Shown piece by piece: positions 25,419-32,392 of a DNA stretch of 64,000 bases (its first letter is position 1; every line of letters starts with the position of its first letter). A program made the position numbers and the translations under genes. The notes below the pieces were generated by a model. The model searched no databases. It had not been told where the DNA came from and saw nothing but the letters and a program-made list of their open reading frames with translations. Origin of the DNA: Deferribacterales bacterium (GTDB lineage: Bacteria > Chrysiogenota > Deferribacteres > Deferribacterales > Geovibrionaceae); assembly GCA_050251945.1 (NCBI GenBank), contig JBFWLW010000010.1, positions 1-64,000 of the forward strand, written 5' to 3'.

Positions 25419-25450
25419 GGCTGCGGGTCTCAGCCCCGCAGCCCCCTTTT
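25419..25450 (+). terminator. Intrinsic terminator after flgE
   Basis: GGCTGCGGG-N7-CCCGCAGCC followed by a T-run. Confidence 0.7.
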
Positions 25451-25566
25451 AATCACCTTTTCACCATTATTTCTGTTGACTGCAATGGCTTACATCCTGT
25501 ATCTTTATAATAATTATAAAATTGTCCTGCAAAAGCGGAAGACGTTAATTGCATTTCGGAGAAGTT

Positions 25567-26331
25567 ATGGATATAGCAACCATTGTCGGAATTCTGCTTG
25601 CATATTCTCTTGTTATTGCTGCACTTCTTATGGGACCGGGTCTCGTTCCTTACATAGACATCCCCTCTGTTCTTATCGTTATCGGCGGCAACGCCGGTAT
25701 TATTATGATGTGCGTTCCTCTGGGAACTTTCTTTTCTTTCGGCAAAGTGACGATGAAAGCTTTCAAATATACTTTGGACGATGCCCCGAAACTTATCGCC
25801 CAGCTTGTCGAGTTCGCAGTTAAAGCAAGACGCGACGGCATCCTCTCTCTCGAATCCGCAGGCGACGAGGTTGGGGACGAATTCCTTAAAAAAGGTATCA
25901 GGCTTGCGGTGGACGGCACCGAGCCGGAAGTCATAAAGGGTATCCTTGAAACAGAACTTAATTATATGTCGGAAAGGCATAAAACGGGTGCCAACCTGCT
26001 CGGTTACATCGTAGATTACGGTCCTGCGATGGGTATGATAGGTACGCTGATCGGTCTTGTTGCGATGCTTCAGACCATGGACGACCCAAGTTCCATCGGT
26101 CCCGCCATGGCGGTTGCCCTGCTTACCACCTTTTACGGTGCGATGATGGCGAACCTGTTCGGCGGACCTATTAAGGCAAAGCTGGAAGGACGCTCCGCAC
26201 AGGAGACCCTCATCAGAGAGATCATGATAGCAGGCATTATGGCGATACAGGCGGGAGACAACCCCCGTATCGTGGAGCAGAAGCTTAACGCTTATCTTGC
26301 TCCGAAGGAACGTAAGTCTCAATTTGAGTGA
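25567..26331 (+). CDS. motA: Flagellar stator protein MotA/PomA
   Basis: ARRDGILSLE, GPAMGMIGTLIGL and MAVALLTTFYG; ATG at 25567. Confidence 0.95.
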   Translation: MDIATIVGILLAYSLVIAALLMGPGLVPYIDIPSVLIVIGGNAGIIMMCVPLGTFFSFGKVTMKAFKYTLDDAPKLIAQLVEFAVKARRDGILSLESAGDEVGDEFLKKGIRLAVDGTEPEVIKGILETELNYMSERHKTGANLLGYIVDYGPAMGMIGTLIGLVAMLQTMDDPSSIGPAMAVALLTTFYGAMMANLFGGPIKAKLEGRSAQETLIREIMIAGIMAIQAGDNPRIVEQKLNAYLAPKERKSQFE

Positions 26332-26351
26332 TATTTCCGGAGATTTTTCAA

Positions 26352-27116
26352 ATGGGCGAAAAGAAGTGTCCCGAATGTAAACCGGGTTCCCCGCTTTGGA
26401 TGTCAACCTTTACGGATATGAACCAGCTTCTGCTGACGTTCTTCATCCTGCTGCTCTCCATGGCGTCCATGGATCAGAGAAAGATTAAAGTTGCTCTCGG
26501 TTCGCTGCAGGGTTCGCTCGGTGTACTTAAAGAAGGCTCACAGACGGAGTTTACGAAAGACGACATTATGTCGCGTCTGTCGTTTGTGAAGAATGTCCAA
26601 TCAATGAAAAACAAATTAAGCGAAAATATAAAGACATACGCTCAGCAGGCAAACCTGCAGCAGAACGTTACCGTGTCAGAATCCAAAAAAGGCGTCGCAG
26701 TACGCATAATGGATTCCTCACTGTTTGCGCCCGGAACCGCGGACATAAAACCTGAGGCGTACCCGCTTCTGGATAAGTTCGCCGCAGTTATTTCTGAATC
26801 ACCTTTTAACGTTGTTATCGAGGGGCATACCGACGATTTGCCCATTACCACTGCTCAGTATCCCACAAACTGGGAACTTTCAACTGCAAGAGCGGTCAAC
26901 GTTGTAAAGTACTTTGTAAACAAAGGTGTCGATGCGCAAAAGCTTTCCGCATCCGGCTACGGGTCGTACCATCCTGTTACACCGAACATAAGCCCCGAAA
27001 GCCGTGCGAAGAACAGGCGCGTTGAAATCAACTTTGTCAGCCCGGAATTGGCAGAGTCTAACAAAAATCTGTTTGATGCCGAGGAAGAGGCACAGGCGAC
27101 ACAAGGAGGAAGGTAA
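26352..27116 (+). CDS. motB: Flagellar stator protein MotB
   Basis: WMSTFTDMNQLLLTFFILL, OmpA-like EGHTD, NWELSTARA and NRRVEI. Confidence 0.95.
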   Translation: MGEKKCPECKPGSPLWMSTFTDMNQLLLTFFILLLSMASMDQRKIKVALGSLQGSLGVLKEGSQTEFTKDDIMSRLSFVKNVQSMKNKLSENIKTYAQQANLQQNVTVSESKKGVAVRIMDSSLFAPGTADIKPEAYPLLDKFAAVISESPFNVVIEGHTDDLPITTAQYPTNWELSTARAVNVVKYFVNKGVDAQKLSASGYGSYHPVTPNISPESRAKNRRVEINFVSPELAESNKNLFDAEEEAQATQGGR

Positions 27117-27628
27117 TGGCCGCAGAAGAAGAGAAAAACGCCGAAGAGGGCGGTAAGAAGAAGAAAGGCGGGAAGCTTAAGCTTATTATAATAGTCGTGG
27201 TGCTGTTTATAATTCTCGGCGGAGGCGGTTTTCTTGCTTATAAACTGTTTCAGGCTCCTAAAGACGCAGAGGCAGGCGCAGAAGTCGCTAAAAAAGAGGT
27301 TACTGCCGCGCCCACAAACGAGGTGGGAGCTCTTTATCCTCTCGAGACCTTCATCGTCAATATGGCGGACAACGACGGTTCAAGATATCTGAAAGTTACA
27401 GTTCAGCTTGAACTGGACAAGACCGAAAAACTGAAAGAGGAGCTGGACAAGCGCGTTCCGCAGCTTCGCGATGCAATACTCACAATTTTGTCTGCAAAGA
27501 CTTATGAAGAGGTAAGCTCAGCGCAGGGCAAACTTATTCTTAAACAGGAAATACTCCGGAGGCTGAACTCTCTGCTTCCGTTCGGACAGATAACAAATAT
27601 CTATTTCACAGAATTTGTGGCACAGTAG
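27116..27628 (+). CDS. fliL: Flagellar basal-body protein FliL
   Basis: Single N-terminal TM helix; FIVNMAD, PQLRDAIL and IYFTEFVAQ. Confidence 0.95.
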   Translation: MAAEEEKNAEEGGKKKKGGKLKLIIIVVVLFIILGGGGFLAYKLFQAPKDAEAGAEVAKKEVTAAPTNEVGALYPLETFIVNMADNDGSRYLKVTVQLELDKTEKLKEELDKRVPQLRDAILTILSAKTYEEVSSAQGKLILKQEILRRLNSLLPFGQITNIYFTEFVAQ

Positions 27629-27633
27629 GAAAT

Positions 27634-27921
27634 ATGAAAGATACTCACATTGCCAAACACGAATTCGGAGAGGTTCTTTTCGACATTAAGGTCGAGCTCG
27701 GACGCAAGATGGTGAAAGTCCGCGAGCTTCTGGGCTGGGAAAAGGGAACCATACTGAAATTCAACAAAACGTCCGGCGAACCCGTGGATTTCCTCGTGAA
27801 CGGAAAACCGCTGGCGCTTGGCGAGATAATGGTTCTGGATGACAAATTTGCCATCCGTATCACAGAGATACTGGACAAACAGAAACTTACTGAGATGTAT
27901 AAGAATGGCATGTACCGTTAG
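27634..27921 (+). CDS. fliN: Flagellar C-ring protein FliN (SPOA domain)
   Basis: VELGRK, GEPVDFLVNG and GEIMVLDDKFAIRITEI. Confidence 0.88.
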   Translation: MKDTHIAKHEFGEVLFDIKVELGRKMVKVRELLGWEKGTILKFNKTSGEPVDFLVNGKPLALGEIMVLDDKFAIRITEILDKQKLTEMYKNGMYR

Positions 27922-28693
27922 ATATTTCCTGACAGCGATGCTGTTTCTGGTCAGCTTAACCGCCAATGCGGCGCATCTGACATATGAGATAGACGACGCG
28001 GGGCTCAGGATACAGGTTGATTTTGATCAGGGGTATTCCAATGTGAATACCCTTAAACTTGACAAGAGCTTCGTGGTCAGCTTTGAAACTCCGGAACCCG
28101 TCGTGTTCCAGCAGGAGTTTTGGGATATGCCCGTGGAGAAGCTGTTTGTCACATCCGATGACACAAGAAAAAGGCTTATCACTGATTTTGCCGGAGAGCT
28201 TGTGGTGCCGGAGATAGTTTCCCAGCCGAAACAGCTTAAAATAACCTATTCATTCCCGAAGGTGCAGAAAACCTCAGACCCTGTTGTGGGTACGCAGGCG
28301 TATGCAAGGATGATATGGGGTCTGCTCATTATCCTTGCGGTTATGCTTACTATCTTCTGGGCTTTCAGAAAATATTTCAAAAGACAGGTGTTCACCGATA
28401 TCCCCGGCACAGGAAGACTTCTGGGGAAAGCGGATATCGACCTGCGCAAAAGCCTTTATTTTTACGAAATAGACAACAAAATATACATTCTGGGAGTCAC
28501 CGACACTTCCATGAACCTTATTGATAAGGTTTCGGAAGAGGACGAAGTGACCCGTATCAAGGCGGGATTTACCAAGAAGACCGAATTTGTGAACTATATG
28601 AAGTTCTTCAAGAAGAACCCGGGAGTAAAAGACGAGGTGGAGATCTCCAGAAACTCCATTTCGGAGAGGTTGAAGTCATTAAGAAAGCGCTGA
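27905..28693 (+). CDS. fliO: Flagellar export protein FliO/FliZ with an N-terminal periplasmic extension
   Basis: Signal peptide, TM helix and KIYILGVTDTSMNLI; lies between fliN and fliP. Start approximate. Confidence 0.75.
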   Translation: MACTVRYFLTAMLFLVSLTANAAHLTYEIDDAGLRIQVDFDQGYSNVNTLKLDKSFVVSFETPEPVVFQQEFWDMPVEKLFVTSDDTRKRLITDFAGELVVPEIVSQPKQLKITYSFPKVQKTSDPVVGTQAYARMIWGLLIILAVMLTIFWAFRKYFKRQVFTDIPGTGRLLGKADIDLRKSLYFYEIDNKIYILGVTDTSMNLIDKVSEEDEVTRIKAGFTKKTEFVNYMKFFKKNPGVKDEVEISRNSISERLKSLRKR

Positions 28694-29430: not shown

Positions 29431-29703
29431 ATGACACCCGATTTAGTAATCGACATGCTTACAAAAGCTTTGCAGCTTTCACTGCTGATCGCGTCGCCCA
29501 TGCTCCTTTTCGGGCTTGTGATCGGTCTCATAATCAGTATCTTCCAGTCCGTTACGCAGATTCAGGAGATGACACTTACCTTCATCCCTAAAATAATCGG
29601 CGTTATCGTGGCTGTTATGCTGTTCGCGCCATGGATGCTTGATCAGATAATGACATACACCATCCAGCTTTTCGGCAACCTTCATAATTACATAGGAAAG
29701 TGA
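29431..29703 (+). CDS. fliQ: Flagellar export protein FliQ
   Basis: ISIFQSVTQIQEMTLTFIPKI. Confidence 0.97.
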   Translation: MTPDLVIDMLTKALQLSLLIASPMLLFGLVIGLIISIFQSVTQIQEMTLTFIPKIIGVIVAVMLFAPWMLDQIMTYTIQLFGNLHNYIGK

Positions 29704-29704
29704 T

Positions 29705-31030
29705 ATGAAACGTTTTCTGTTGTGCCTGCTGCTGTTCTCTTTCGGGGCTTATGCCGCGGAAAGGGCTGTGGTGCGGATGCCGGACACGCCGGACGATATG
29801 TATTCGTCCAGCCATGCGCTTGTGATAGGCGTTTCGGACTATAACGGCGGCTGGCCTAAACTCCCAGGGGTCAGACAGGATGCGGATGCGGTTGCGGCGG
29901 CACTCACTGCGGAGGGATTTAATGTCAGACGTTCCGCAAACCCCACTGCACAGGATATCAGAACTGCCGTGGACGATTTCATATCGAGATACGCTGAAGA
30001 TCCGAAGGCGAGGATACTCATATATTTCGCGGGACACGGACACACCATAGACGGCACCGGATACGTTGTCGGACGGGATGCAAAAGACCCTGCGAAGGAT
30101 GTTAACGGATTTAAAAAAGGCGCACTTACAATAGATTATTTTGCATCAAGAGCAAAAACTATGGATTCCAGACACGGGCTTTTCGTTTTCGACAGTTGTT
30201 TTTCCGGTACGGTCTTCAAAGCGCTCCGGTCTATTCCCGATTTCAAGGCGGAGATGCTCTCAAGACCGGCAAGGGAATTCATAGCGTCGGGTACCGAAAA
30301 TCAACAGGTTCCTGACGACAGTGTGTTCCGTAAGCGGTTCATAGACGGCATCAACGGCTATGCAGACGCGAACGGCGACGGACTTGTTACGGGAAGCGAG
30401 CTTGGGCAGTTCGTACAGAATGAGGTGTCGGACTATTCAGCAGGCACGCAGACCCCTGTTTACGGCAAACTGTCCGGAAGTGACGGTGAGTTTCTCTTTT
30501 TCAGAGGCAAATCACAGCAGACAGTTTCCGCTCCTGCTCCCGCGGCGGACGGTGAAAAAGAACAGCTTCTTGCCGTGATACGCAGAAGCCCCGGCTCTAT
30601 AGAAGCTAACAACGCACTGAAAAGACTGCGCGAGATAGACGATTCGCTGAAAAACCAGCCTCCGGTGACTGCTCCGGAGCGAAAAGACAGAGTTACGACG
30701 GTGACATCCACAGTTATCTATAACCGACCCGACAGAGATTATCCGTTCGTCGTGATAGCCCCTGTAACAGCATACGTAGGCGGACACAGAATAACGGCGG
30801 CTTTCTCTGTTGAGGCGTTAAACGGCAACGGATACAGAAATCTGCTGAACAGAAAAGAGATGCTTCGTTCCGTTATGGGACACAGAATAGAAGAGGCGGG
30901 GATAACACGAAACGACAGTATGTCGGCTGTGAGGCGGAAAGTTAAGGATGCCGCAGCGAAGGCGATGAACTTTGCATGTCCTAATTGCGGACGATATGCT
31001 CCTGTGCTTAAGGGCTTGATGATAAGATAG
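29705..31030 (+). CDS. Secreted caspase-family (peptidase C14) protein with an extra, possibly FliL-like, C-terminal domain
   Basis: Signal peptide; ALVIGVSDY, catalytic YFAGHG and FDSCFSG; ADANGDGLVT; QTPVYG. Confidence 0.9.
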   Translation: MKRFLLCLLLFSFGAYAAERAVVRMPDTPDDMYSSSHALVIGVSDYNGGWPKLPGVRQDADAVAAALTAEGFNVRRSANPTAQDIRTAVDDFISRYAEDPKARILIYFAGHGHTIDGTGYVVGRDAKDPAKDVNGFKKGALTIDYFASRAKTMDSRHGLFVFDSCFSGTVFKALRSIPDFKAEMLSRPAREFIASGTENQQVPDDSVFRKRFIDGINGYADANGDGLVTGSELGQFVQNEVSDYSAGTQTPVYGKLSGSDGEFLFFRGKSQQTVSAPAPAADGEKEQLLAVIRRSPGSIEANNALKRLREIDDSLKNQPPVTAPERKDRVTTVTSTVIYNRPDRDYPFVVIAPVTAYVGGHRITAAFSVEALNGNGYRNLLNRKEMLRSVMGHRIEEAGITRNDSMSAVRRKVKDAAAKAMNFACPNCGRYAPVLKGLMIR

Positions 31031-31279
31031 TTATTTCTTCCCGACCAGATATTGTGCGATGGCTTTTCTTTCGCCGTTGCTTATGTCCAGTCCGAAGTTT
31101 TCCATTCTTTTGATGGTGTCGAGCCACTGGTCATAAGTCTTTTTCTTTTTCAGAGCCAGTTCGGAACCGTGGCATCTTGAACATTTGGAAATAAACAGTT
31201 CATCGGCTGGAGTTTTCGGAGCGGAACCGCAGGCTGCGCACAGTATGGCTGAAAACATCGCAAGCAAAAAAACTTTCAT
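31031..31279 (-). CDS. Small monoheme c-type cytochrome lipoprotein
   Basis: Lipobox CAAC, CSRCH heme-binding motif and WLDTIKRM. Confidence 0.8.
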   Translation of the reverse strand: MKVFLLAMFSAILCAACGSAPKTPADELFISKCSRCHGSELALKKKKTYDQWLDTIKRMENFGLDISNGERKAIAQYLVGKK

Positions 31280-31857
31280 TTTTCTCCCCTTCTGATGGAT
31301 TTTATATATTCTGCAGTTTCGGCGGAGGCGCCTTCGGAAACAATTCTGGCGGTTATCTCGTCATTATATTTCATGGCGCTGACTGTGTAGTTGTGACTGC
31401 CTATATAGGTTATATTACCATCTATTACTGTTGTTTTGGCATGCAGTCGTTTCTTTTTTGAGTCGTAAACGACTTTAATCCCCGCTTTTTTCAGCTCGTC
31501 GCCTGTTTCTCTGTTTATTTTGCCCGTGATGTCTCTGCTGTTGGAATCATCCATAACAACATATATCTTAACACCGCTTTTAGCCGCTTTTATGAGTGCC
31601 TGCTTGATTATTTCAGTGTCGCCGAGCTTGAAATCAGATGTTTTGAACATGTAGATAGCCATATAGATGGACTGCTTGGCGTTCGATATGTCGTGTACAA
31701 ACACGGGAAGCAACTCTTCATTGGTCAGGATGGACACGGTGGATTCATATTCCTTTATGTCCGCCTTCAGGTTTGTATATACAAACAGGGAGACAAATAT
31801 GGCAAGTATTGAAAATAACTTAAGCCATAACTTCCTGTATTTTCTTCCAAACATCAT
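31276..31857 (-). CDS. Phospholipase D-family protein (single HKD), membrane-anchored
   Basis: HAKTTVID...GSHNYT motif and an N-terminal TM helix. Confidence 0.88.
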   Translation of the reverse strand: MMFGRKYRKLWLKLFSILAIFVSLFVYTNLKADIKEYESTVSILTNEELLPVFVHDISNAKQSIYMAIYMFKTSDFKLGDTEIIKQALIKAAKSGVKIYVVMDDSNSRDITGKINRETGDELKKAGIKVVYDSKKKRLHAKTTVIDGNITYIGSHNYTVSAMKYNDEITARIVSEGASAETAEYIKSIRRGEK

Positions 31858-32392
31858 CTTTTCCTTTTCCTGTGAGTGAGCTGAAAAGCACGAAGGATTC
31901 ACGCGGCAGATTAAGCTGTTTGCTGATTGCGGCGAGTCTGCTTGTGTTCTGGTTGTTTGACAGTTTGTCGCACTTGGTCAGCGCGATTATTGTTCTGATG
32001 TTATAGTGACTGAACCAGAACAGCATCCCAAGGTCGTCATCGTTGGGGTCGCGGCGTATGTCGAGAATAAGTACGCAGGTGGTAAGCTGACGGCGTTCTG
32101 TGAGGTAGTCCTCAATAGTCTCTGCCCATTGCTTTTTTTCTTCTTTGGAAACCTTCGCATATCCGTAGCCGGGCAGGTCGACCAGCATAATGCTGTCCTG
32201 CACAAGAAAAAAGTTTACCAGACGGGTTTTGCCGGGTGTTTTACCGACCTTCACCAGCTTGCGTGTGCCAAGCAGTGTGTTTATCATGCTGGATTTGCCC
32301 ACGTTGCTTCGTCCGCAGAACGCCACTTCGGGGAATTCTGTAACGGGATAACCTTTCGGCTCTTTCGCGGAAGTTATAAATTCAGCTTTCAT
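31820..32392 (-). CDS. engB: Ribosome biogenesis GTPase EngB/YihA/YsxC
   Basis: GRSNVGKSS, PGKT, DLPGYGYA and TKCDK. Confidence 0.96.
   Translation of the reverse strand: MKAEFITSAKEPKGYPVTEFPEVAFCGRSNVGKSSMINTLLGTRKLVKVGKTPGKTRLVNFFLVQDSIMLVDLPGYGYAKVSKEEKKQWAETIEDYLTERRQLTTCVLILDIRRDPNDDDLGMLFWFSHYNIRTIIALTKCDKLSNNQNTSRLAAISKQLNLPRESFVLFSSLTGKGKDDVWKKIQEVMA

Follow-up and report, generated by a model that had tools for sequence, protein, structure and literature searches.

What does a caspase-family protease do at the end of a flagellar operon? The question is raised by a gene at positions 29705-31030 (+ strand) of the window, the 64,000-nucleotide (nt) stretch analysed here (positions 1 to 64,000 of contig JBFWLW010000010.1, assembly GCA_050251945.1, from a Deferribacterales bacterium). 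To our knowledge, neither a substrate nor a pathway is known for most caspase-family proteases of bacteria. This one, a protein of 441 residues according to the open reading frame (ORF) call, joins a peptidase C14 domain to a C-terminal tail with a predicted FliL fold, and its gene starts 1 nt past the fliQ TGA (29701-29703). It closes a run of motA, motB, fliL, fliN, fliO, fliP and fliQ, each confirmed by Pfam; this arrangement had been given in a preliminary description of the locus, with which the ORF calls and Pfam agree. The genes for the stator, motA and motB, lie at 25549-27116, the canonical membrane-anchored fliL at 27116-27628 (PF03748, E 5e-27) and fliQ at 29431-29703 (PF01313, E 1e-27), all on the + strand. 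A caspase with its own FliL domain, coupled to fliQ, narrows the question to one candidate location, a handful of possible substrates and a cleavage specificity predicted to be for Arg/Lys.

The peptidase C14 domain spans residues 33-266 (29801-30502, +), and PF00656 matches residues 37-253 with an E-value of 4e-19 (69.6 bits against a cut-off of 21.4). The catalytic dyad, described earlier as intact, consists of H111 (30035-30037) and C165 (30197-30199), which are invariant in the 32 aligned orthologues used for residue counts over the full protein (34 tails were used for tail positions), as are D59, D163 and D204, candidates for an acidic pocket. The predicted model has a caspase fold, with MALT1 and caspases at the top of both structure searches and low confidence over residues 166-282, and MALT1 is the nearest solved structure to the catalytic domain. 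D59 aligns with the Asp that opens the first MALT1 helix, D163 lies two residues before the Cys, and D204 is placed by position only; this comparison uses what we take, in part, to be the numbering of the MALT1 pocket residues. In MALT1 Arg is bound by three acidic residues and dimerization is required (PMC4357240), from which we infer that the fusion protease may be specific for Arg or Lys and activated by proximity through dimerization, perhaps with calcium. Type I metacaspases are active as monomers owing to two additional β strands; the corresponding region of the fusion protein is modelled with a predicted local distance difference test (pLDDT) score below 50.

A candidate calcium site is the EF-hand-like loop from D221 to E232 (30365-30400, +), with a weak Pfam EF-hand match below the cut-off (E 0.036). 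Both end residues are conserved in all 32 orthologues, and a similar loop pattern is found in 69 of 89 other caspase relatives. Taken with the conserved Arg residues at 20, 175 and 326, the loop may suggest calcium control and self-processing; the loop, Arg 20 and Arg 175 are shared by the majority of the 89 non-orthologous relatives, which are 43-51% identical over the catalytic domain and carry many different tails. We rejected an anti-phage role, for which PADLOC gave only a generic caspase match.

The protein is likely exported. Residues 1-17, ending in A-Y-A (29705-29755, +), form, by sequence pattern and hydropathy, a predicted Sec signal peptide, as the preliminary description proposed, with a presumed cleavage site. 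This region has a strong 11-residue hydrophobic core, and its best 19-residue mean hydropathy is 1.69, compared with 2.95 for the FliL membrane helix. By hydropathy only, each of the 11 genomic orthologues begins with what resembles a cleavable signal peptide, and the same scan found no hydrophobic 19-residue segment beyond it, hence no membrane anchor, in any of the 11. A conserved Arg-Ala pair follows at residues 20-21 (R20 in 31 of 32 orthologues).

The tail, residues 345-441 (30737-31027, +), is the FliL-like part of the protein, with a likeness that neither Pfam nor BLAST detects. PF03748 has no match in the window protein or in six orthologous tails, and the NCBIfam FliL models have none in four full proteins. 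In profile comparisons the tail is borderline against the FliL of the operon (score 15.6, with 7 of 200 shuffles as high), gives a P of 0.32 against a larger FliL alignment, and scores 25.2 against a profile for a second family of FliL paralogues (0 of 300 shuffles). The predicted model of the tail (pLDDT 80.9) has FliL as the top match in both Foldseek and VIA-align, over 95-99 residues, and the tail is thus predicted to have the FliL-C (SPFH) fold. The FliL-like domain and the structural similarity proposed from reading the sequence by eye are therefore upheld by the predicted fold and by the paralogue family profile, and the by-eye register is reproduced by profile alignments for the ITAAFSVE and RKEMLRSVM segments.

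Searches for more distant relatives of the tail gave eight matches among representatives, five of them true and belonging to the fusion family and three confined to short stretches, and a metagenome scan gave one spurious locus only. The tail profile found nothing significant in the PDB, and the ESM Atlas held no usable match for the tail. The tail carries a CxxC motif (C425 and C428, 30977-30988, +) that is invariant in all 34 tails and that FliL does not have; in 31 of 32 orthologues the mature chain has no cysteines other than these two and C165. A zinc ribbon was rejected, as its Pfam matches come from the CxxC alone and lie below the cut-off. The second FliL paralogue, divergent and membrane-anchored (L034:1495-1989, -; G000:C4:300728-301009), is encoded outside the flagellar clusters in most of the order and is missing from two aflagellate genomes.

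Is the link to the flagellar operon maintained in relatives? The fusion tail is present in 11 of 68 phylum genomes, namely all seven of the window's genus and all four of a second genus, and 57 do not have it; the database records of relatives name Seleniivibrio and Denitrovibrio. The gene follows fliQ in all 11, with a 1-nt gap in five and an overlap in six, so that the proposed fliQ linkage holds in every genome carrying the gene, all from one clade. The fusion protein is about 45% identical between the two genera, which a flagellar tree (five proteins, 27 genomes) joins with a support of 99, the other two genera of the family being their sister. In a tree of catalytic domains the fusion proteins form a clade of their own (29 of 29, support 1.0). 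Ratios of nonsynonymous to synonymous substitution rates (dN/dS) range from 0.02 to 0.11 in the catalytic domain; in the tail they are 0.07-0.13, apart from 0.32 in a single pair of very close sequences, and one of seven pairs is saturated. The fusion gene is under purifying selection, tail included.

The place of the gene had been described as that usually held by fliR. We rejected a displacement of fliR by the fusion: in a survey of 55 fliQ loci from 61 genomes of the order, of which four end too early and 51 are readable, fliR follows fliQ in none of the 51, and the fusion gene therefore did not take its place. fliR lies on another contig beside flhB (L002:6452-10641, near flhA, flhF, flhG and fliA), and the split into fliP-fliQ and flhB-fliR holds across the order. 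Of the preliminary interpretation, the FliL fold (as a prediction) and the linkage to fliQ stand, and its framing around the place of fliR does not.

Elsewhere in the order the slot after fliQ is variable. Four genomes of the sister clade have a convergent gene there, by eye a glutamate racemase, and one genome of the sister genus (G007) has a gene (L039:1012-1455, -) for a 148-residue signal-peptide protein, P0020, with no caspase domain and no membrane anchor. P0020 is FliL-like, with template modelling (TM) scores of 0.58 and 0.60 for its Atlas structure and an NCBIfam FliL E-value of 0.005. This query found no homologues in 15 other genomes of the family, and no direct sequence link to the fusion tail was found (P 0.17 and 0.27), so the two may not be orthologous.

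This variable slot bears on a rival explanation, that the fusion is a passenger gene sitting at the operon's free end and playing no part in the flagellum, its tail being a FliL relic kept for folding or for another partner. Such an origin fits the unrelated genes that occupy the slot in most of the order, as well as the confinement of the domain to a single clade, away from those 57 genomes. It does not account for a FliL-family domain five genes from fliL, the tight start-stop coupling to fliQ throughout the 11 genomes, the second gene of FliL type that the sister genus has in this position, or the purifying selection on the tail, and we consider it improbable.

The tail probably derives from a duplicated anchor-less FliL-family gene, joined once by a mobile caspase module in the ancestor of the two genera. 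A lead to a possible independent second fusion is P0051, a single metagenome sequence of 496 residues without context that encodes a secreted caspase with a FliL-matching tail (score 22.6, 0 of 100 shuffles, ranking first among 89 tails; E 0.027 for NCBIfam FliL). It does not fall within the fusion clade, nor does it count among that clade's ten nearest neighbours, and a search of the 68 phylum genomes for genes of this type matched the known fusion genes only. Picked from 89 candidates, P0051 is just a lead.

Between the two domains lie a conserved hairpin and a linker. The hairpin, residues 284-313 (30554-30643, +), is modelled as two helices (284-294 and 299-311), and its dN/dS is 0.03 or less in five of seven pairs, those with usable dS. 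Its profile matches none of the 89 non-orthologous caspases; with a looser pattern, 31 of the 89 have a similar-looking hairpin. The linker, residues 314-344 (30644-30736, +), is conserved and poorly modelled (pLDDT below 50 over 317-342), and it contains E325-R-K-D328, a candidate self-cleavage site whose four residues are conserved in 29, 29, 30 and 27 of 32 orthologues (R326 in 29, K327 in 30).

These features raise the alternative that the protease mainly cuts itself at the linker Arg-Lys, freeing a soluble subunit of FliL type to cap the FliL ring or tune it, with the tail as the effector and the caspase as a release switch. The conservation of the motif within a segment modelled as disordered speaks for it, as does the free, soluble protein of FliL type encoded after fliQ in G007, except that this protein and the tail have no direct sequence link and may not be orthologous. 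We regard self-release as distinctly unlikely.

Which surface of the tail might meet the motor? We placed the tail in register with FliL by profile alignments, end-anchoring and hydrophobic spacing, and the following positions depend on this register. The interface residues of Helicobacter FliL include K126, D132 and K156 (PMC8794807), which would map to R383 (32 of 34 tails), S389 (31 of 34) and R410 (33 of 34). Across ten H. pylori ring positions mapped in this way, two basic residues are kept, an Asp has become a conserved Ser and a Phe is still aliphatic, with an Asn, a Tyr and one Lys lost. Vibrio FliL has belt residues L115 and L160 and PomB-facing V74 and V165 (PMC6426602); in the tail the belt positions are changed, together with the FliL-invariant Asn, Tyr and Gly-Lys. 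With R383, S389 and R410 kept and the belt and valine positions lost, the helical face looks retained in an altered form and the inner strand face looks eroded.

As to expression, a terminator-like hairpin follows flgE at 25419-25443, and from the fliQ stop to the start of the caspase gene the terminator scan found no other. Among sigma-70-like sites the highest-scoring one (10 of 12, 29569-29597) lies inside fliQ; the score drops to 7-10 across the 11 genomes with the fusion and to 7-8 in five that do not have it, and eight sites were found against 6.0 ± 2.4 expected. The score tracks the coding sequence, and the site speaks neither for nor against an internal promoter. In the search for expression data, the single run examined yielded two short contigs, both lying outside the gene.

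Our tentative preference, held with less than even confidence, is for a periplasmic Arg/Lys protease whose gene is expressed along with those of the stator; the protein would bind FliL-type subunits from the side, become active at the stator and cut one of the motor's parts. The C14 protease with its FliL-fold tail would likely be made together with the stator genes and exported to the periplasm by its predicted signal peptide. There it could dock laterally through the helical face of the tail (R383, S389 and R410), the canonical FliL of the operon being the proposed partner. Crowding at the stator would then switch the protease on, by dimerization and perhaps calcium, and the active enzyme would cut a motor part after Arg or Lys. 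A guess at the substrate is the MotB linker that threads the FliL ring, or the FliL linker, in which case stator units would be retired or remodelled. One candidate cut site from the MotB alignment is K60 (26529-26531, +), just past the predicted plug, which is Lys in 11 of 11 fusion genomes and in none of eight other aligned genomes; this column is confounded by clade, and with one clade only it is just a candidate. The proposal has precedents in the divergent FliL paralogue MotF, which interacts with both FliL and the stator (PMC9541039), and in accessory proteins by which the FliL-stator unit is clamped (10.64898/2026.05.29.728556).

Several points weigh against this proposal. The equivalents of the PomB-facing valines in the placed register, positions 355 and 439, are variable in the tail. 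A canonical place of the tail in the FliL ring appears doubtful because there is no membrane anchor and because these valines and several ring-interface residues are lost. The fliQ synteny, finally, is one evolutionary event and not eleven, because all 11 genomes belong to one clade. A stronger version seems to us unlikely: around each stator the tail would enter the FliL ring or cap it, this ring would be the platform on which activation takes place, and stators would be retired through cleavage of the MotB linker by the protease, with a fusion that may have arisen more than once (P0051).

The same losses suit another explanation, in which the tail is a module for self-assembly and activation only, and the oligomerized protease leaves the stator untouched, its targets in the motile phase being periplasmic or secreted proteins outside the motor. 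The stator-facing valines and β-strand contacts are lost, and what is kept is a private surface, R383-x-x-M-L-x-S-V, R410 and the CxxC. SPFH-fold domains make rings in unrelated settings, MALT1-like proteases require dimerization, and related caspases bear generic tails (FGE-sulfatase, TPR, PDZ, SEL1). This leaves unexplained the lasting coupling to fliQ in two genera whose fusion proteins have diverged so far, and the FliL-like gene that occupies this slot in G007 without a caspase; we hold it to be possible, if rather unlikely. Even without any action on the motor, the FliL fold would have been reused as a soluble, protease-linked module, whereas a protease targeted to the motor, if this reading is true, would be a new kind of motor control.

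Each domain is known singly, and modular bacterial caspases have been described (PMC4933709, PMC6426788). What seems new is the fusion of the two domains and its coupling to fliQ, as a variant among modular secreted C14 proteases. These secreted relatives, 43-51% identical in the catalytic domain, share the signal-peptide-like start, the His-Cys dyad and the EF-hand-like loop, and their tails are FGE-sulfatase, TPR, PDZ, SEL1 or PEGA; unlike them, the fusion has a FliL-derived tail with a CxxC, a gene coupled to fliQ and a clade of its own. With FliL (PF03748; Vibrio 6AHQ, Helicobacter 7SGN) the tail shares the predicted fold and the final C-terminal strand, and the fusion is encoded in the motAB-fliL cluster. 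Unlike FliL, the tail sits behind a protease, has no membrane helix, falls under every FliL family cut-off and has partly lost the ring- and stator-facing residues. MALT1 paracaspase carries Ig domains, whereas the bacterial, predicted periplasmic fusion protein has no Pfam Ig match and has the FliL-fold domain as its other domain.

The tail also resembles the SPFH scaffold-protease pairs, HflK/C-FtsH and stomatin or QmcA with NfeD, in which an SPFH-fold module stands beside a protease, and such complexes appear among its fold matches. In those pairs the scaffold is one membrane protein and the protease another, the protease classes differ from that of the fusion and there is no flagellar link, whereas the fusion holds both in one soluble chain. 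MotF of Sinorhizobium meliloti is, like the tail, a highly divergent FliL relative recognized by its fold (PMC9541039, in the part available), but it has a FliL-like N-terminal helix and no enzyme domain.

The literature searched (titles and abstract openings, with subscription journals largely outside its coverage) describes no caspase-FliL fusion and no protease built into a stator scaffold, and the available part of a preprint on ancestral flagella (PMC13277936) mentions neither such a fusion nor its coupling to fliQ. The two genera that carry the fusion are related anaerobes, and their clade has a cultured member in Denitrovibrio acetiphilus (protein P0037).

Some neighbouring features deserve mention. 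A small, cytochrome-c-like convergent ORF opens at the base right after the stop codon of the fusion; together with a phospholipase-D-like gene, also convergent to the fusion, it occupies 31031-31902 (-), and both genes lie within 1.5 kb of the fusion in 10 of 11 genomes. The genome has a second caspase-family gene (L032:1276-3324, -; G000:C8), whose 682-residue product has a lipoprotein-like start, a PDZ domain and the C14 domain last. FliO (27839-28693 of the window) is long, at about 254-284 residues; it begins like a signal peptide and has additional N-terminal sequence ahead of the Pfam FliO part. The fliL of G013 (L118:3675-3965, -) has an in-frame TAA within the periplasmic domain, which may be an assembly error, and its caspase fusion is intact. 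In G009, G011, G013 and G015, flagellin N-terminal matches lie inside very long frames, some of about 750-820 residues and others of about 1290.
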